A stretch of DNA of 12,354 bases from an uncultured Chroococcidiopsis sp. (lineage in GTDB: Bacteria; Cyanobacteriota; Cyanobacteriia; Cyanobacteriales; Chroococcidiopsidaceae), in the NCBI GenBank assembly GCA_964248365.1, contig CAXTYC010000064.1:1-12354 (forward strand), given 5' to 3'. This document shows positions 1,904-12,354 of the stretch, one piece after another. A program made the position numbers and the translations under genes. Within the stretch, counting starts at the first letter, position 1, and each line of letters begins with the position of its first letter. The notes beneath the pieces were generated by a model that was not told the origin of the DNA, searched no databases, and saw only the letters and a list, made by a program, of their open reading frames with translations.

Positions 1904-3115
1904 ATGCGTCCTCGTCAAGGCATTATTGAAGTCTTTTCGACTTTTCTGCAATTTGATGCTGATCGTTTCAGTGCTTGGGCAACTGAACCACGACTGCGGC
2001 GGAGTATGCAAGTAAATTTGACTCGAACGGGGATCGTAGAGTCTAGAGAAGAATTTTGGGTTCTCTATTGGTACAAGCTGTGGCAAACCCAGCCAAATAG
2101 TTTGGCACAATCCCATCTGTGCGCTTACTTGCAAGAAGTGTGCTACTGGGCGGCACACAAAACAAATGCTAGCTTTTCCTCTACCCAGTACACTTTATCT
2201 GACTGCTTCATGATGGCGATCGCACGGTTGGATAAAGTATTGAAAGGCTTTAATCCCCAGCTTGGCTACGGTTTCAAAAATTATGCAACCGTAATTTTCA
2301 CCAGTGTCCTTAAAGATATCCTGCGCCAGCATCAGGAAGTTGATATTTGTACTAACTGGTCGTTATTACGCAAGATCAGCCAAAAACGCTTAGTCGAATC
2401 TTTGCAAAATGTTGGTTTGAATACCGAAGCAATTGCTTGTTACGTGCTTGCTTGGAATTGTTTCAAAACTGTTTATGTCCCAAATCATCCTACTGGTACT
2501 CGTCAACTCCCTAAACCTGATGCTGCTACTTGGGAAGCGATCGCCCAATTATACAACCAACAGCGGCTGGTTCAACTGCCATCTACCCAACAATGCAATG
2601 CTCAAACCCTAGAAAAATGGCTGGGCGCTTGTGCGAAAGCAGCGCGTTCTTATCTATATCCGACTTTTATATCGATCAATACTCCTAAACCAGGACAAGA
2701 ATCAGGCGAATTTTTAGACGATGTAACCGAATTCACTCAAGAAACATTTCTTAATGAAATTATTGCCGCCGAAGAAGAGCAAAGCAAACATCTACAGCAA
2801 GATCAGCTTAAAGCCGAGCTAGCAGAGGCTTTGGCGGGGCTAGATCCCCAGGCACAGAAGATCGTGCAGCTTTACTACGGGCAAGGACTCACGCAACAGC
2901 AAATAGCCCAAAATCTCGATATCAAGCAGTATACCGTTTCTCGGCGGTTAACAAAATCTAGAGAAATTTTGCTGACTTCTCTTGCTCGTTGGAGTGGTGA
3001 GACACTGCATATTTCATTAACTTCAGAAGTACTTAGCTATATAAATACCGTTCTGGAGGAATGGTTAAAAGTCTACTATGACCATCCCTGCCCTCGCTTG
3101 GAGTCTTCCCCATGA
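1904..3115 (+). CDS. Sigma-70-family-like regulator (cyanobacterial long form with C-terminal region-4 HTH)
   Basis: 403 aa. Region-2-like segment (AHLxAYLQE-type ... GFNPQLGYGFKNYA...LKDILRQ) and region-4 HTH LDPQAQKIVQLYYGQGLTQQQIAQNLDIKQYTVSRRL. Confidence 0.85.
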   Translation: MRPRQGIIEVFSTFLQFDADRFSAWATEPRLRRSMQVNLTRTGIVESREEFWVLYWYKLWQTQPNSLAQSHLCAYLQEVCYWAAHKTNASFSSTQYTLSDCFMMAIARLDKVLKGFNPQLGYGFKNYATVIFTSVLKDILRQHQEVDICTNWSLLRKISQKRLVESLQNVGLNTEAIACYVLAWNCFKTVYVPNHPTGTRQLPKPDAATWEAIAQLYNQQRLVQLPSTQQCNAQTLEKWLGACAKAARSYLYPTFISINTPKPGQESGEFLDDVTEFTQETFLNEIIAAEEEQSKHLQQDQLKAELAEALAGLDPQAQKIVQLYYGQGLTQQQIAQNLDIKQYTVSRRLTKSREILLTSLARWSGETLHISLTSEVLSYINTVLEEWLKVYYDHPCPRLESSP

Positions 3116-4275
3116 CTTTTGATCCTGCCTTGCTTCCCACCGCTGATTCGACTCACTTGTGCTTAGATTTGTCCGAAACAGATATAACCCAGGCTTGGCA
3201 GCGCAGCCAGTCTTTTTCTAGCAATAGTTGTTGCTGGAATGCTTATCTCAATTCTATTTGCCTCAATAGTGTTCTGGGCTGGCTACGAGAGGAGTGCGCA
3301 CCCCAAGCTAATGTTTGGTTAAGTGCTACTTTGCCAAGCATTTGGGAGGTGGTTAATGGATCAGCTATTACCCTAGACAGAACCCGATTTGTTTTAGTTC
3401 CCACCGAGGCGATTGATTTAAGTGAGCTGCGAGTGCCGCAAGAATGGGTAGATATTCCAAGCTGGGCAGGAGATTATTATCTGGGAGTGCAAGTTAATCC
3501 AGATGAAGGGTTGGTAAGAATCTGGGGATACACAACGAATCAGCAGCTAAAACAAAAAGGTAGCTACGATCCGCAAGATCGTACATATAGCTTGGATGAA
3601 AATGATTTAATTCAAGATATCAGTGTTTTGTGGGTGGCACGTCAACTTGGTCTAGAAGAACGAACTAAAAGCCATATATCAGCCCTACTTAGTATACCAT
3701 TAGCACAGGCACAAAACTTAATAGCCCGTTTGGGTAATCCAGATGTAATTAATCCTCGGCTAGCCCTCCCGTTCGAGTTGTGGGGAGCTATTCTAGAGCA
3801 TGGCGGCTGGAGACAAAGGCTGTACCAGAGCCGTATGGGACATTCAGAGCAGTGGTCAATTTTACAATGGCTCCAAAGTGGAGTATCAGAAGCGGCAAAA
3901 CAGATCGGTTGGGGACAAGCAGAATGGCAGCTAGCAGGAGGGAAAGGAACAACAATTCCATCAGTAGATTTTTTGTCTCGCTCTTTGGCGATCGCAGGTC
4001 AAAATTATGAGTTGCGGGTGATTCCCAAAGGTGATGCTAATGAGAGAATTTGGCGGTTTGAGCTTATAAATGCCAATAGGGGCGATCGCATTCCAGGCGG
4101 ATTTAAACTGCGACTACTAACTGAGGATTTGCAAGCTTTTGAAGGCAACGAAGACGTAGCTATAAATGCCCAAGAGCATTTATTTGTTGACGTAGTTCTT
4201 GCACCTGGCGAAGGCTTGGTATGGGAAGTAGAACCGATGCCAGACAACTGCGATCGTGAGATCCTGCGATTTTAA
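3112..4275 (+). CDS. DUF1822 family protein
   Basis: WNAYLN, LxxIWEVVNGSAI, ELRVPQEWVDIPSWAGDYYLGVQV...IWGYTT motifs. ATGA overlap with the stop of the sigma-like gene. Confidence 0.88.
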   Translation: MTFDPALLPTADSTHLCLDLSETDITQAWQRSQSFSSNSCCWNAYLNSICLNSVLGWLREECAPQANVWLSATLPSIWEVVNGSAITLDRTRFVLVPTEAIDLSELRVPQEWVDIPSWAGDYYLGVQVNPDEGLVRIWGYTTNQQLKQKGSYDPQDRTYSLDENDLIQDISVLWVARQLGLEERTKSHISALLSIPLAQAQNLIARLGNPDVINPRLALPFELWGAILEHGGWRQRLYQSRMGHSEQWSILQWLQSGVSEAAKQIGWGQAEWQLAGGKGTTIPSVDFLSRSLAIAGQNYELRVIPKGDANERIWRFELINANRGDRIPGGFKLRLLTEDLQAFEGNEDVAINAQEHLFVDVVLAPGEGLVWEVEPMPDNCDREILRF

Positions 4276-4327
4276 CTAAAGAATTCTCATTAAGACAGCA
4301 GTTCTTGAGCTTGATCGCTAAAATCGT

Positions 4328-4398
4328 CACACCAAAAAGCTACGACACCAACAAACTAAACACTTCTTTCCTTTTGTGTCTTTGCGACTTTGCGTGAC
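4328..4398. terminator. Degenerate inverted repeat between convergent genes (CTTTGCG-type cyanobacterial dispersed repeat); possible bidirectional terminator
   Basis: TCACACCAAAAAGCTACGACAC on the left and TTTGTGTCTTTGCGACTTTGCGTGA on the right; pairing is imperfect. Confidence 0.4.
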
Positions 4399-4424
4399 AA
4401 TAATCCAAAATCCACCCATCAAAA

Positions 4425-6353
4425 TCAATGTCCTAACTTAATTTCCCCATCCTTGTCACCACTAGCAAGCGTTTTGCCATCAGGACTAATTGCCACAGCA
4501 TAAACATCCGCATCATGACGAGATATAGTGTTTAGCAACTCTCCAGTTTGTGGATTCCAGAGTTTGATCAGGCGATCCTCTGCACCGCTAACAAGCATGC
4601 CATCTGCTCTAAAGGCTATAGAATTAACATGATTTGAATGCCCAGATAGAGTATGTAGTAGCGCCCCAGTTTGTATATTCCAAAGCTTGATCGTATTATC
4701 ATTACCACCGCTAGCAACCATCTGACCATTTGGGCTAATCGCAACAGAAATAATTCTCGCTGTATGCCCCTTGAGAGTATGAAGCAACTGCCCAGTTTGT
4801 AAATTCCAAATTCTAACTGTGTTGTCTTTCCCGCCACTGGCAATAATTTGCCCATTTGGACTAATTGCCACAGAGCGAACTGTATCTGTATGCCCAACTA
4901 TTGTACGCAGCAATTGTCCTGTTTTCAAATTCCAAATTTTAACTGTCTTATCTCCACTGCCACTAACAATAATTTGTCCATCTGGGCTAATTGCTACAGA
5001 GCGAACTGTATCTGTATGCCCAACTATTGTACGCAGCAATTCTCCTGTTTTTAAATTCCAAATTTTAATTGTTTTATCTCCGCTACCGCTGACAAGAGTC
5101 TGTCCATCTGGGCTAATTGCAATAGACCAAATTGTATCTAAATGCGCTGAGGGAAAGACGCGAAATAATTCACTATTTTTTAGCTGCCATAGCTTGATTG
5201 TTTTGTCTCCACTGCTACTAGCCAGGAGTTGACTATCAGGACTGAAGACAAGACACCAAACTGTGTTTCTATGCTCAAAGACGGTAGAAACCTGATTTTT
5301 ATATTTTGTGTCTGCGGCAATAGATTCACCCATCGGCAGATGTTGTAAATCTTGAGTGTGAGTAAATGTGTATATTGTTCCGGCAAGTAATAATACAGTG
5401 ACAAGACTAGCTCCAATCACTGACTGTGAGTTTCTCAAATTTGGCAGCGGAAAATTAACTCGGTGAATTGGAGTTGAATTTAGATGGTATGGTTTATCAG
5501 CAAGCAACTGTCGTAGGTCATATTCAGTCGTTACCGCTGACGGCTCATCACTTGCTCCACCAGAATCGCTCTCGGTTGAATCTTCATTCCACTTTTGTTT
5601 TAGGTTCCCAATTGGTGCTTTAGTCAGCCCAATATTATAGCTTTCTCCAACTGTATATATTGTTGGTTCCAATGTGACGGTAGACTCTTCTACTTTTCTG
5701 CTAATGTACTGATGTAGTTCATAAGCAGAAATAGATTTATCTTGATTTAAATCTGCTATTCCTGTTTCAATTCCTTCAACTAAATAACGGGTATAACTTG
5801 AAAGGTCAAAACCCTTGTGTGAGGGTAATTCTTGTGTTGAAGTGGCAGCTGTTAGGACTACTCGCCCTTCTCCCCCTAGCTGGTTTTTGATATCTACATA
5901 ATTGGAATTTTGAGATAACCAAATATTAGCAAAAGCATTACTTAAACAACAGTCTAATATCACTACTTGTTGTCTAGAGAGGCTATCGTTCATGATGTCT
6001 TGCACAAAAGTAGCTGGTACTGCTGTTGATTTGACAAGTTCCCCTTGAGAATTTTTACAACTGAGGCGGGTTGTAAAATAAAGCTGGTTGTGATCGTCAT
6101 TTACACAGTGACCAGAGAAAAATAGCAGTACCAAGTCATCATATTCGCGCACTTTCTCTGTAAACAAAAGCGCGATCGCCCTCTGCATTGTCAGTGGATC
6201 GGGGTTTTTTAGTGTTTGCACATAACTAAAATCGCCCAGAAGGGGGTTTTGTAATATACGTTGCATTGCCTCTAAATCTTTTACTACCCCAGGCATCCAG
6301 TTAAAGCCAGGTCCGTAGTCACTCACTCCAATCAGCAATGCTACTCTAGCCAT
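4425..6353 (-). CDS. Caspase-family (peptidase C14, orthocaspase-like) protein with transmembrane helix and 7 WD40 repeats
   Basis: N-terminal VALLIGVSDY, FFSGH(C) and ILDCC (His/Cys dyad present). Hydrophobic VIGASLVTVLLLAGTIYTF. Seven (G)H...SPDG...D.TIK.W repeats. Confidence 0.9.
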   Translation of the reverse strand: MARVALLIGVSDYGPGFNWMPGVVKDLEAMQRILQNPLLGDFSYVQTLKNPDPLTMQRAIALLFTEKVREYDDLVLLFFSGHCVNDDHNQLYFTTRLSCKNSQGELVKSTAVPATFVQDIMNDSLSRQQVVILDCCLSNAFANIWLSQNSNYVDIKNQLGGEGRVVLTAATSTQELPSHKGFDLSSYTRYLVEGIETGIADLNQDKSISAYELHQYISRKVEESTVTLEPTIYTVGESYNIGLTKAPIGNLKQKWNEDSTESDSGGASDEPSAVTTEYDLRQLLADKPYHLNSTPIHRVNFPLPNLRNSQSVIGASLVTVLLLAGTIYTFTHTQDLQHLPMGESIAADTKYKNQVSTVFEHRNTVWCLVFSPDSQLLASSSGDKTIKLWQLKNSELFRVFPSAHLDTIWSIAISPDGQTLVSGSGDKTIKIWNLKTGELLRTIVGHTDTVRSVAISPDGQIIVSGSGDKTVKIWNLKTGQLLRTIVGHTDTVRSVAISPNGQIIASGGKDNTVRIWNLQTGQLLHTLKGHTARIISVAISPNGQMVASGGNDNTIKLWNIQTGALLHTLSGHSNHVNSIAFRADGMLVSGAEDRLIKLWNPQTGELLNTISRHDADVYAVAISPDGKTLASGDKDGEIKLGH

Positions 6354-7120: not shown

Positions 7121-7426
7121 TCAACTATTTAAATTTAAATCAGTAGCATTACCGAATCTACTAATCTGAATGCTCCACTCTCGTATATTTTTCGTTTGGC
7201 GTTGAGCAAGAGTAGGGTCAGCTATGTGCGCTTGCTTTAGCGCTTCTGAACGAAGTTTTCTGGTTTCTGCCGATTGAACGTAAATAGGATGAGCAATGCC
7301 ATATTCTTTCATCCTTCTTACAAGGGTACTTCTAGAAATATCAAGAATGCCTGCTGTTTCTGTTATTGTTTTTGAGAAAAGCAGGCGTTCAATTTCTTGT
7401 TTAGTAATGTTGGTACAACGCTTCAT
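7121..7426 (-). CDS. Small HTH protein with NUMOD3-like motif; possibly a truncated endonuclease-type gene
   Basis: TITETAGILDISRSTLVRRMKEYGI (HTH) and QSAETRKLRSEALK (NUMOD3-like). Starts 46 bp after the rtcB stop on the same strand. No nuclease motif visible. Confidence 0.55.
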   Translation of the reverse strand: MKRCTNITKQEIERLLFSKTITETAGILDISRSTLVRRMKEYGIAHPIYVQSAETRKLRSEALKQAHIADPTLAQRQTKNIREWSIQISRFGNATDLNLNS

Positions 7427-7472
7427 ATTCTAGGAAATTTTATTACTAATACTTGAAGCATCCTACCATTTT

Positions 7473-8654
7473 TCAACCTTTCACGCAAATAACTTGTTTC
7501 AAAGTAGCAACTACCTCTACAAGATCTGTTTGTTGACAAATAACTTCTTCTATCGGCTTATAAGCCCCAGGAATTTCATCCAAAACACCGCTATCTTTGC
7601 GACATTCTACCCCTTTTGTTTGCTCAATCAAATCATCGAGCGAGAAGTGATTTTTTGCCTTATTTCGAGACATCAAACGCCCCGCACCGTGAGAGCAAGA
7701 GCAGTAACTTTCAACATTACCTTTACCCTTAATAATGAAAGATTTTGCACCCATTGATCCAGGTATAATACCGTAATCTTCTGTACGCGCTCTTACTGCA
7801 CCTTTACGAGTAACATACACATCCTCGCCGAAATGCACTTCTTTTTCGGCATAGTTATGATGGCAGTTTACCTCTAATAAAGGCTTAAATGGCTTACCAC
7901 CAGCAAGATGCTTTTCCATTACCCGCTTAAAACGAGCCATCATTACATCTCGATTAAAACGCGCATAGTCTTGCGCCCATTGTAAATCGCGCCAGTAAGC
8001 AGCAAATTCAGGTGTTCCAGCTACGAAGTAGGCTAAGTCGGGATCGGGTAAACGATTTTCTACCAGCTTTGCCAATTCCCTAGCTGTACCAATATGGCAC
8101 TGAGCTAGCATATTACCAATATGGCGGGAACCAGAGTGTAGCATTAACCAAACTTGGTTTTCGGTATCGATACAAACTTCTAGGAAATGATTTCCTCCAC
8201 CTAGAGAACCCATTTGATTCATTGCTTTGCTTTCCAAGCGTTTTACCCCTGGATGCAAATCTTTGAAATCATACCAACGCTGCCAATTTGTTACAGATTT
8301 TTCAATGTTTTTGTTTTCACTGAATCCGACTGGAATAGTGGCTTCAATGTCAAGACGAATTTGCTTTAGTTTACCTTCAAGTTGATCGGCGACAAATGGC
8401 GTTTTAATCGCACCCATGCCGCAACCAATATCTACACCGATCGCAGCTGGGATAATAGCATCGCGGGTGGCAATTACCGATCCTACTAATGCTCCTTTGC
8501 CTAAATGGACATCTGGCATTAACGCTACGTGCTTGAAAACAAATGGCAGCGAAGCTACATTTTTTGCCATCTTGATTTCTTCAAAACCAAGGGCATGATT
8601 CGCCCAAGTAAGTACAGGCGAGCGCGTTGAAATTTCTAGTTTTTCGTATGGCAT
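7473..8654 (-). CDS. rtcB: RtcB family RNA ligase (3'-phosphate/5'-OH)
   Basis: MPDVHLGKG, GVDIGCG, GSLGGGNHF, HSGSR, NCHHNY, RKGA, IIPGSMG, SHGAGR, DEIPGAYK motifs. No intein. Confidence 0.97.
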   Translation of the reverse strand: MPYEKLEISTRSPVLTWANHALGFEEIKMAKNVASLPFVFKHVALMPDVHLGKGALVGSVIATRDAIIPAAIGVDIGCGMGAIKTPFVADQLEGKLKQIRLDIEATIPVGFSENKNIEKSVTNWQRWYDFKDLHPGVKRLESKAMNQMGSLGGGNHFLEVCIDTENQVWLMLHSGSRHIGNMLAQCHIGTARELAKLVENRLPDPDLAYFVAGTPEFAAYWRDLQWAQDYARFNRDVMMARFKRVMEKHLAGGKPFKPLLEVNCHHNYAEKEVHFGEDVYVTRKGAVRARTEDYGIIPGSMGAKSFIIKGKGNVESYCSCSHGAGRLMSRNKAKNHFSLDDLIEQTKGVECRKDSGVLDEIPGAYKPIEEVICQQTDLVEVVATLKQVICVKG

Positions 8655-8694: not shown

Positions 8695-8913
8695 TGGAAA
8701 AAACGACTTAAAAATACAGCCAGCCCTCTTCACAAAAACTCTCCCACGCGCCCGATAAATCCTAATACAGGGAAAAAGGAGACTTTAAAAATAGTGCGGT
8801 CCGTCAAACCAGATACCCTAGAAGACCAACAGATAAGCCAATACACAAACCGCACTATTTTTATGCGTCAGGTGTAAGGCTGGCTGTATTTTTAGAGTTA
8901 CATCGGATTCCCC
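8695..8913. mobile_element. Hairpin mini-element (copy 1, outer) in the rtcB upstream region, containing nested copy 2
   Basis: Flanked by direct repeat TTCCCC (8689-8694, 8908-8913). Arms TAAAAATACAGCCAGCC (8709-8725) and GGCTGGCTGTATTTTTA (8878-8894). Right flank GAGTTACATCGGATTCCC recurs at 12180-12197. Mobility is inferred. Confidence 0.65.
8773..8879. mobile_element. Hairpin mini-element (copy 2) nested in copy 1
   Basis: GG-N13-TAAAAATAGTGCGGT (8786-8800), 48-nt loop, ACCGCACTATTTTTA (8849-8863)-N14-GG. Perfect 15-bp stem. Confidence 0.65.
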
Positions 8914-10135: not shown

Positions 10136-10864
10136 ATGACTTTAAAAGCAGTTTTATTTGATTTCAACGGTGTTATTATTAATGATGAGCCGCTCCATGA
10201 GAAGTTAATTGAGCAAATATTAATTGAGGAAAACCTACGCCCAATAGCAGGAGAGTTTCGACAGGTTTGTCTGGGTAGAAGCGATCGCGTTTGTTTAACC
10301 GAGTTACTGGGGCGACGGGGTAGAGTTGTCAGCGAAAGTTATTTAACACACTTGATGAAACGTAAGGCATTGGCGTATCAGCAACAACTGGAAAAAATAG
10401 AGAAATTACCACTTTACCCTGGTTTGTCAGACTTGATATATCAGATGCGTAAGCGTAATCTAAAACTAGCCCTCGTCAGTGGGGCAATGCGAAGTGAGAT
10501 AGAATCGGTCTTGAATCGGGCTTCTTTAGCACCAAACTTTCCTGTAATTGTTGCTGGAGATGACATAACTACCAGTAAACCCCTTCCTGATGGTTATCTC
10601 TTAGCAGTCCAACGCTTGAATCAGCAAGATCCCCATTTGCAACTGCAACCAGATGAGTGTTTAGCGATCGAAGATACTCCCGCTGGCATACAAGCGGCTA
10701 AACGAGCTGGAATATCAGTGGTTGGAGTGGCAAATACCTACCCTTTTCATATGATGCAACGACAAGCTAACTGGGCTGTAGATTATCTTTGCGATCTAGA
10801 TTTGCAATGGGTACAACAGGTATTTTCCCAGGCAAACCCTCAGCCTGTTGTTACTGAGTGTTAA
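10136..10864 (+). CDS. HAD family phosphatase/hydrolase
   Basis: LFDFNGVIIND motif I, LVSG motif II, SKP.PD.Y and IEDTPAGIQAAK motifs III/IV. Confidence 0.92.
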   Translation: MTLKAVLFDFNGVIINDEPLHEKLIEQILIEENLRPIAGEFRQVCLGRSDRVCLTELLGRRGRVVSESYLTHLMKRKALAYQQQLEKIEKLPLYPGLSDLIYQMRKRNLKLALVSGAMRSEIESVLNRASLAPNFPVIVAGDDITTSKPLPDGYLLAVQRLNQQDPHLQLQPDECLAIEDTPAGIQAAKRAGISVVGVANTYPFHMMQRQANWAVDYLCDLDLQWVQQVFSQANPQPVVTEC

Positions 10865-10929
10865 AATAACTAATAGCGATTTGATTGGTTGCAATTCATA
10901 GTTCACCCTTTATCCTTCATCCGTATTAA

Positions 10930-11002
10930 GGGGAATTAGCTCAGTTGGTAGAGCGCTGCGATCGCACCGCAGAGGTCAGGGATTCGAGTTCCCTATTCTC
11001 CA
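10930..11002 (+). tRNA. tRNA-Ala(CGC)
   Basis: Acceptor GGGGAAT/ATTCTCC with G3:U70 and discriminator A. D arm GCTCAGTTGGTAGAGC. Anticodon arm CTGCG-ATCGCAC-CGCAG. T arm AGGGA-TTCGAGT-TCCCT. No encoded CCA. Confidence 0.97.
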
Positions 11003-11004
11003 TT

Positions 11005-11160
11005 TGTCATTAAATAATTATTGTCAGTTTTAAAGAATTCTTGTCCAATTTGAGCAGATTAAGGGACACAAGTGACGTATTTTCCTGACTTTCAGCAATT
11101 TTCTCGGTTTTAAAGAATTCTTGTCCAGAGTTGAAACTCTTTTTAAAGAATTCTTGTCCA
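11005..11160 (+). mobile_element. Tn7-like (type V-K CAST-type) transposon end with four TnsB-binding-site repeats; element extends to the right
   Basis: TGT at 11005, then TAAATAATTATTGTC (11011-11025) and three exact copies of TTTTAAAGAATTCTTGTCCA (11028, 11108, 11141). Starts 2 nt after the tRNA. Confidence 0.85.
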
Positions 11161-11335
11161 AAACTACATAACAAAACTTAATTAGATTAGATATATGGAA
11201 TCTAGAAGATTACAGCAAGCCCAAGGCTCTTTATTTATAAATTTATTAAGTAGTTTTACACTATAGCTGAATTTCTCTTGCTTTGCGGCTTTCACTGGGG
11301 CAAAAGCTCCACTACTTAAAAATAGCTGCTTCTTA

Positions 11336-11367
11336 CGGTGCGATCGCAGCACTCCTTTCAAACCACC
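11336..11367 (-). CRISPR. Delocalized single repeat-spacer (homing crRNA) of type V-K CAST targeting the adjacent tRNA-Ala
   Basis: Minus strand GGTGGTTTGAAAG (11367-11355; cf. V-K repeat 3' end GGTGGGTTGAAAG) followed by GAGTGCTGCGATCGCACCG, 18/19 identical to tRNA 10951-10969, which is preceded by GTA (GTN PAM). Confidence 0.9.
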
Positions 11368-11681
11368 CTAAGTATTACAGTTGTAGATTGTTAAGAATAA
11401 GATGAGATCGCTTTTGATAGTGGTAGTACTGTGCCCATGCTTGATGTTCGCGTCGCCATCACGACTCTTGCAAAACTAGCTCAATTCTCCAAACTGCTGG
11501 AAACAGTAATTTGCACAACCACTGTCGCATTTCTGGCACGCAAAGCGCGGATAATAGACCTCGTGCCGCTTTGAATGATGCCATTGGACGAGGCGGTACT
11601 AGAGGATTGGTTGTTTGGTTTTTTTGGGTATTGATGATTGGCTCAACGTGATAGCAGGAACTCTTAAATAAATGTCAGACC

Positions 11682-11830
11682 AGAGAGGAAACTTTAAAAA
11701 TGAAGGCAACCTTGTGTTGAGTTATCTGTGAGCGTCTAGGGCGATTTATATTGAAGGTTGCCTTCATGCGCGACGTTTGAGGGGGAAGCTTCCCCCTCAA
11801 AGCTCGCTTTTTTATGCGTCATTTGTTACC
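11682..11830. mobile_element. Hairpin mini-element (copy 3), loop inverted relative to copy 2, right arm interrupted by a palindrome
   Basis: CC-N13-TAAAAATGAAGGCAACCTT ... AAGGTTGCCTTCAT [insert] TTTTTTA-N14-CC. Flanks are 10/13 and 11/14 identical to those of copy 2. Confidence 0.6.
11768..11807. repeat. Small palindromic insertion (dispersed-repeat-like)
   Basis: Perfect 26-nt palindrome TTTGAGGGGGAAGCTTCCCCCTCAAA (11776-11801), flanked by GCGA/TCGC. Confidence 0.7.
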
Positions 11831-12218: not shown

Positions 12219-12354
12219 GTTGGGTCGAAGGGGGCTATTATGCCCCGCAGCTCCCATGCGCGAATTGGACGTGCAAGTTTCCCCGCATCCATCTCCCGAT
12301 GTTCTAATACCAAGTTGCGGTCTAAGAAGATATGCTTAGATGAGGAAAAAAAGT
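12219..12354 (-). mobile_element. Group II intron 3' end (domains V and VI), probably degenerate; continues beyond the window
   Basis: Minus strand GAGATGGATGCGGGGAAACTTGCACGTCCAATTC (12295-12262), a 34-nt domain V with GAAA loop and AC bulge. Then a domain VI hairpin ending CGACCCAAC, with A at -7 from an AC terminus. Confidence 0.85.

Follow-up and report, generated by a model that had tools for sequence, protein, structure and literature searches.

Probable scar of a V-K_V2 CAST behind tRNA-Ala(CGC) in a Chroococcidiopsis-like cyanobacterium

Here, we describe a locus near one end of a 12,354-nt stretch of DNA (the window), which is the entire contig C64 of assembly G000. We conclude that this locus is very probably the scar of a V-K_V2 CAST that once homed to tRNA-Ala(CGC) in a Chroococcidiopsis-like host, received an IS701-family insertion, and lost the rest of its sequence. 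The left end and the guide are identifiable as those of V2 elements, the PAM and the end are 54 nt apart, an IS701 end adjoins the guide, V2 parts are absent from the assembly, and the host lies outside Nostocales on a one-gene tree. From these observations, we infer the order of events as well as a horizontal arrival of the element. We class the locus as a remnant of V-K_V2, not as a functioning member; what is left would be an inactive scar. Target, guide, and spacing are already published and entail no new mechanism; what is new is small, namely, that the host groups with Chroococcidiopsis, outside Nostocales, and that other non-Nostocales families have orphan V2 ends of a similar kind.

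The left end, its guide, and the tRNA target

The features of the locus are listed below with their window coordinates and strand.

10930-11002, plus strand: tRNA-Ala(CGC), the host attachment gene (ARAGORN; Rfam RF00005, 64.6 bits)
10948-10950, plus strand: GTN-type PAM (GTA), from the sequence
10951-10967, plus strand: 17-nt anchor protospacer, with a chance match on to 10969; identical to the Anchor_Protospacer of V2 rows in the accessible part of PMC12416283 Dataset 3
11000-11004, plus strand: predicted left copy of a 5-bp target-site duplication (CCATT); right end and right copy not found in G000
11005-11159, plus strand: V-K_V2 left end with terminus TGTCATT and four TnsB-type sites (11010, 11030, 11110, and 11143); site spacing of 80 and 33 nt, as in the relative G041
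11160-11335, no strand: linker from left end to guide, V2-homologous; BLAST matches run without a break to 11371 in 21 of 26 relatives
11338-11354, minus strand: 17-nt anchor (homing) spacer, 16/17 match, T for C at position 4; same spacer in the KVJ20 row of PMC12416283 Dataset 3, as far as that dataset was available
11355-11368, minus strand: truncated repeat R* (GGGTGGTTTGAAAG)
11372-11605, minus strand: remnant of an IS701-family element (its terminal inverted repeat and the decayed 3' part of its transposase gene) replacing the array/tracrRNA/cas12k region (BLAST to an element of genome G003; inverted repeats)
12219-12297, minus strand: 3' domains of a group II intron near the contig end (Rfam RF00029, 43.7 bits); other contigs carry related pieces; not a component of the CAST

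A type V-K left end with a TGT terminus and repeated TnsB sites is present 3' of the tRNA gene, and a truncated repeat with a 17-nt spacer matches a protospacer that lies outside this end and has a GTN PAM. An earlier note on this DNA had located the GTA PAM, the start of the protospacer, the TGT at 11005 at a distance of 54 nt from the PAM, four TnsB-type sites, and a truncated repeat with a spacer matching at 18 of 19 positions, and we find each of them at the position it gave. The TnsB-type site motif occurs four times in the window compared with a mean of 0.00 in 200 shuffles, and the pattern of GAAAG plus spacer occurs once compared with 0.00 in 200 shuffles; because both patterns were derived from the window itself, these counts show that the features are not due to chance, but they do not establish the identity of the features.

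The protospacer contains GCGATCGC (window 10956-10963), which we take to be the abundant cyanobacterial HIP1 word; because of it, roughly half of the guide finds a match at a great many genomic sites. The HIP1-type word accounts for 8 of the 17 protospacer bases, and still, sequences within one mismatch of the 17-mer are found genome-wide at just two places in the 5.58-Mb assembly, i.e., the tRNA and the guide spacer. Read as 19 nt (11354-11336), as in the earlier note, the spacer does match at 18 of 19 positions, with T for C at position 4. However, 23 of 25 relatives match at neither position 18 nor position 19, arguing that the guide unit is the usual 17 nt (16/17 match) and that the matches of the window at these two positions are probably incidental.

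The earlier note had contrasted the terminus with the TGTACA of ShCAST, a contrast that falls away when V2 elements are considered: the terminus is TGTACATT or TGTCCATT in 25 of 25 relatives, and the window lacks the fourth base. Judged by this comparison of sequences, TGTCATT is the V2 terminus TGT(A/C)CATT minus one base. The 1-nt deletion comes from this assembly alone, the near-identical contig of run X1 starting at 11008, and other contigs with a full-length terminus come from other strains. The deletion probably spoils the spacing for TnsB.

The mismatch at spacer position 4 had been interpreted as an rU:dG wobble. Among 25 relatives, the spacer/target bases at this position are C/C in 10, C/T in 8, T/T in 6, and T/C in 1, with a search pattern that permitted C or T alone at spacer position 4. 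Protospacer position 4 is base 25 of the tRNA, which is C or T depending on the host and which, in the standard tRNA structure, pairs with G10. Because the non-wobble mismatch (8/25) is commoner than the wobble (1/25), a wobble is not needed; rather, we conclude that the mismatch follows the polymorphism of the tRNA D-stem and is not designed, and the guide seems to have retained the tRNA allele of a previous host.

Comparison with V-K_V2 elements

Scanning a genome collection with the repeat-spacer pattern alone yielded 26 loci, all in records named Nostocales. The same end follows tRNA-Ala(CGC) at 25 of these 26 loci, and the distance from PAM to TGT in the 25 relatives is 54 nt in 22, 55 nt in 1, and 57 nt in 2. 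Window positions 11001-11371 align over their full length with 21 of the 26 relatives (69-76% identity) and partially with 5, and no BLAST match to the relatives extends past 11378. Behind the guide, 21 of the 26 relatives have further CRISPR repeats; three of three downstream ORFs tested encode Cas12k (788-809 bits on NCBIfam Cas12k), and the three relatives with both ends on one contig have tnsB, a tnsC of 301-306 aa, and tniQ at the far end. Thus, homology bears out the claim of the earlier note that this is a homing site of a Cas12k CAST at tRNA-Ala(CGC). Two of the three two-ended relatives (G041 and G042) have a 5-bp duplication starting with CCAT (CCATG and CCATA), and in the third, a second element abuts the right end. 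Because complete relatives show such equivalent duplications, the predicted CCATT duplication is of the right kind.

V-K_V2 was defined by Ziemann et al. (2025; PMC12416283), who reported a PAM-to-end distance of 54 nt compared with a mean of 62 nt for V1 and an occurrence exclusively in Nostocales. In the portions of the supplement available, the V2 systems of Dataset 1 include our scan matches KVJ20, CMAA1605, FACHB-892, CENA369, and Peltigera cyanobiont 232; the V2 targets of Dataset 3 include an identical tRNA-Ala(CGC); and the KVJ20 row of Dataset 3 has the tRNA, the protospacer, and the T-for-C anchor spacer, all as in the window. The window has the 54-nt distance from PAM to left end and the V2-type end consensus, with 69-76% identity to the ends of those V2 systems that the accessible part of the paper names. 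Compared with a V-K_V2 element such as that of Nostoc sp. KVJ20, as far as the available data describe it, the window is alike in tRNA-Ala(CGC), the GTA PAM, the 54-nt spacing, the left-end sequence, the spacing of the sites, R*, and the anchor spacer with T for C at position 4; in contrast, it keeps only the left 370 nt, its terminus is one base short, an IS701 end takes the place of the array, and the host is not a member of Nostocales.

The arrangement also agrees with the anchor-spacer layout of V-K homing described in the available portions of PMC9938897 and of Hsieh and Peters (10.1101/2021.02.06.429022), including the GTN PAM of V-K CASTs, a tRNA target, a repeat remnant of 12-13 nt that precedes a 17-nt spacer close to the left end, and a PAM-to-end distance within 46-82 nt. 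Unlike the elements in those accounts, the window is without an effector, a tracrRNA, and an array, and it adds no mechanistic novelty. With V-K_V1 (ShCAST-like, including a resident element at tRNA-Arg(CCG) described below), the window has the general layout and the homing logic in common, whereas the TnsB-site sequence and the terminus differ, and V1 distances are ∼62 nt (63 nt in the resident element) versus 54 nt.

Following the homing mechanism in the literature, a complex of Cas12k and tracrRNA with a short R*-spacer RNA would have bound the 17-nt protospacer behind the GTA PAM; TniQ and TnsC would have recruited TnsB, and the element would have inserted left end first, 54 nt from the PAM. 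Because the insertion fell just behind the tRNA, the tRNA stayed intact. At a later time, an IS701-family element would have landed 3 nt upstream of R*; the CAST would have lost everything beyond the guide (array, tracrRNA, cas12k, cargo, tns genes, and right end), and its terminus would have become one base shorter.

The tRNA-Ala(CGC) site is a hotspot, with a V2-type end at 10 of 61 named loci that have this tRNA, several of these being short remnants. Two complete V2 relatives (L183, ∼16050-16070; L184, ∼430-445) have a further end lying back to back with the right end, a sign of repeated insertion at one tRNA-Ala site.

Loss of the rest of the element and rival readings

The IS701 end begins 3 nt beyond R*. 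A multicopy 1465-bp element of G003, which has 22 matches in that genome and a transposase scoring 387 bits on NF033540 (cut-off, 150), matches the window from exactly 11372 with 68% identity over 204 nt, including the last transposase codons. A coding gene in 11370-11650 was considered and rejected: six-frame translation gives stop-ridden pieces only, and the region is IS701. Two decayed ends of this one IS701 family are present in G000 (window 11372-11605 and C23:6037-6215); a full copy of the family was not found there. The junction also lies on a 491-nt contig of run X1 that spans 11008-11498 with four differences and, therefore, exists in a near-identical strain, although run X1 may not be independent of the assembly. 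Further along, window 11700-11807 has inverted repeats (14-nt arms 40 nt apart and a 19-nt hairpin) that are also present on other contigs and in related genomes and look like small mobile or REP-type repeats. Elsewhere in the window, 1904-6353 encodes an ordinary cyanobacterial cluster of a sigma-70 region 4 protein, a DUF1822 protein, and a WD40 protein whose N-terminal domain is long; 7121-8654 contains rtcB (RNA ligase, PF01139) and, behind it, a short reading frame for a helix-turn-helix protein; and a repeat resembling a group II intron lies at 8825-8912.

When four V2 right ends were compared with G000 using BLAST, only the left end described here was matched at E <0.02, and fuzzy searches of G000 for an opposite end, using the terminus and the TnsB site, gave nothing beyond this locus. 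V2 TnsB, TniQ, and Cas12k have only distant matches in G000 (36-56%), consisting of pieces of the V1 element (C19 and C22) and a fragment of a TniQ (C26), and V2 TnsC has no match in G000. The cas12k, tracrRNA, and array of V2 type, which are present in homologous elements, occur neither in the 1 kb that follows the guide nor anywhere else in the assembly. Using the KVJ20 tracrRNA/array region, the region upstream of cas12k, and four proteins as queries, we did not find V2 tracrRNA, the Arc_2 regulator, Cas12k or TnsB of the V2 clade, or the 306-aa TnsC in G000; neither did we find tnsB, tnsC, and tniQ beside a cognate right end in this assembly. Because the missing V2 parts are consistent with loss, we file the locus as a remnant and not as a working member. 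Accordingly, the "complete" footprint of the earlier note is complete as a footprint, but the element is not, with the IS701 end 3 nt past R* and V2 parts not found in the assembly. The earlier note would also have counted the lack of both an opposite end and any tns remnant in the genome against its identification; the assembly has neither an opposite end nor cognate tns genes, but it does have tns pieces of V1 type, and this half-way outcome shows decay and not a wrong identification.

The comparison with empty-site strains that the earlier note had proposed agrees with an insertion: the end is absent in five of five same-genus genomes with a readable tRNA flank. It is also absent at 16 of the 16 non-self loci listed (of 29), 2 of which have V1-type ends instead. 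The DNA 3' of the tRNA in six same-genus genomes maps, by synteny, to scattered contigs of G000; for this reason, the original right flank is not placeable.

G000 has a second CAST, a V1-type V-K element at tRNA-Arg(CCG) (C22:3396-4975 and C19:1-3201; L290 and L291). It has its own terminus, a short array, and a guide with one mismatch, and its right end adjoins kaiC. Its cas12k is a C-terminal fragment (profile positions 480-629), its tns genes are broken into several frames, and the tns and cas12k pieces in the assembly belong to it. If both ends represent one insertion, then TTAGAAA on both sides is a duplication of 7 nt and not 5 nt; the relatives are too divergent to show the empty site of this element.

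Could the V2 element still be largely intact and only split by the assembly, with pieces of IS701 and of a group II intron having landed inside it and its remaining parts lying in gaps? The assembly comprises 102 contigs, this contig ends 1 kb past the guide in a group II intron repeat that likely caused the assembly break, and completeness counts consider marker genes only; hence, missing parts could lie in unassembled repeats. However, cas12k, tnsB, tnsC, tniQ, and the right end add up to ∼6 kb of unique sequence, and none of them was found; the array and tracrRNA are expected less than ∼1 kb from the guide, as in the relatives, whereas the 1 kb concerned is assembled and holds other things. 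We consider this reading very unlikely. We give next to no credence to the idea that the left end and the tnsBCQ cluster on C19 belong together as one element. That cluster is the sole tns cluster of the genome and begins at a contig end, but the C19 end is TGTCGATTG, which has a different type of TnsB site and agrees with the left end found on C22 at tRNA-Arg(CCG). Moreover, its TnsB is 36-45% identical to V2 TnsB, which is the V1-to-V2 range in PMC12416283, and CCATT does not follow the C19 end; end sequence, TnsB identity, and the lack of CCATT together rule the cluster out as a partner. Nor do we find it plausible, beyond a very slight chance, that the resident V1 Cas12k system still makes use, in trans, of an RNA expressed from the surviving repeat-spacer. 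The spacer and R* are nearly intact, and the genome has kept a V1 tracrRNA and array; against this, the fragmentary V1 cas12k is the only cas12k, the V1 tns genes are split, the DNA upstream of R* is an IS end, and no promoter-like site stands above chance (two such sites versus 3.1 expected, none upstream of R*). In RNA-labelled runs (n = 6), shares were small (0.07-0.14), and run X2 covers 10703-10886 only, short of the guide. A decayed V-K_V2 element remains our preferred reading of the locus.

The host and V2-type ends outside Nostocales

The HAD-family protein encoded beside the tRNA groups with Chroococcidiopsis records (SH-aLRT, 91 and 86), separately from the Nostocales clade (support, 100 and 99), in two quick trees; this placement of the host is that of one 242-aa gene. 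The closest named relative of the protein is titled Leptolyngbyaceae and falls in the same Chroococcidiopsis group. hetR was not found in G000, while a Nostoc control gave 264 bits. The host of G000 is, thus, outside the Nostocales range reported for V2. Our search of the literature found no report of a V-K CAST or Cas12k in Chroococcidiopsis and, under the name V-K_V2, only the defining paper and an editorial as relevant, most subscription papers being outside the search; the accessible part of the V2 supplement (PMC12416283) has no Chroococcidiopsis entry.

Among 28 genomes of the host family, three have a DNA match to the left end, and none has a TnsC at V2 level. A strict V2 terminus pattern occurs in 12 of 401 genomes of the order, in five families: 7 are among the 27 genomes of a family whose tested member falls within the Nostocales clade, and 5 belong to the four others. 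Orphan left ends at tRNA-Ala are present in G000, G017, and G054, all at 54 nt, and in G026 at 59 nt, and all four hosts lie outside the Nostocales clade. In G017, the end follows tRNA-Ala(CGC) and there is no guide; in G054, distance and tRNA are the same and the guide is decayed; and in G026, the end follows another tRNA-Ala. None of G017, G054, and G026 has a Cas12k of V2-level identity, the best being 43%, or 49% over a broken piece of 51 residues. In the named collection, the tRNA-plus-terminus pattern has 48 matches, of which 1 is titled Chroococcidiopsidaceae and 1 is unclassified; because the collections overlap, named and unnamed counts are not additive. A metagenome scan for the closest end variant gave one contig with an orphan end and a decayed guide, which is no new case because its BLAST figures are the same as those of G054. 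A V2-type terminus 46 nt long was found on 1 of 72,556 plasmids, a conjugative plasmid of Chroococcidiopsis sp. CCNUC1 (NZ_CP097481.1; L348, 90-135), and no CAST genes are listed in the 36 kb around it in a gene table that is incomplete. A short end similar to this terminus lies on the second contig of G004. Orphan V2 ends also occur inside Nostocales, and the close relatives of V2 TnsC, which are all that this search finds, are at loci named Nostocales in 24 of 24 cases. The non-Nostocales sample is small.

Elements in two other genomes concern the question of what such ends represent. G319 (C95, ∼188200-209800; L331 and L332), a non-Nostocales host, has an apparently complete CAST with V2-like termini at tRNA-Phe, comprising an array, a long Cas12k-like frame (32-38% to V2), TniQ, a 306-aa TnsC (44%), and a 639-aa TnsB. 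In G281 (C1, 3091500-3111400; L335), elements with V2-type termini lie close to tRNA-Pro and follow a V1-type end in a stack; their TnsC is 56-62% identical to that of V2, and one end contains an array. These complete CASTs, with V2-like ends and intermediate proteins, may represent an undescribed sister clade. Because V2-like ends with divergent proteins exist outside Nostocales in G319 and G281, ends alone are no strict proof of V2, and the end in the window might derive from such a sister lineage native to non-Nostocales hosts instead of from V2 proper. In its favor, the G319 CAST outside the Nostocales clade is complete with TGTCCATTAAAT termini, a TnsC at 44%, and a Cas12k at ∼38% to V2, and the ends closest to the window are in non-Nostocales hosts (G054, 86% over 259 nt including the tRNA; G017, 81% over 336 nt). 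However, the window shares with published V2 elements, in the data available, the site sequence, the spacing, the 54 nt, the R* variant GGTGGTTTGAAAG, and the exact anchor spacer; G319 differs from the window in site sequence and target tRNA; and the end tree places the window among Nostocales V2 ends (support, 92). In this 49-row tree, which leaves out 8 loci that the end pattern skipped and 1 with <60% identity, the window is in an unresolved group of seven with Nostocales ends, and the non-Nostocales ends form no resolved clade. On balance, we regard a sister-lineage origin as unlikely, and an origin from V-K_V2 itself as the preferred reading.

Taken together, we lean, by a modest degree, toward a scenario in which V-K_V2 CASTs reached Chroococcidiopsidaceae and at least two other families, possibly via conjugative plasmids, homed to tRNA-Ala at 54 nt, and survive there only as left-end scars that gene-based surveys miss. 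For tool builders, the complete elements with V2-like ends outside Nostocales are more useful than the locus described here. The position-4 mismatch follows the host tRNA allele in both directions, suggesting, on the basis of the sequences compared, that Cas12k homing tolerates this mismatch and that guides may move between hosts uncorrected. A dead left end with its guide records which CAST subtype visited a genome after the genes are gone, and as such a record, the window extends the V2 subgroup beyond its reported host range. If the scenario of wider spread is true, a host factor or regulator limiting the persistence of V2 to Nostocales would be a testable consequence.
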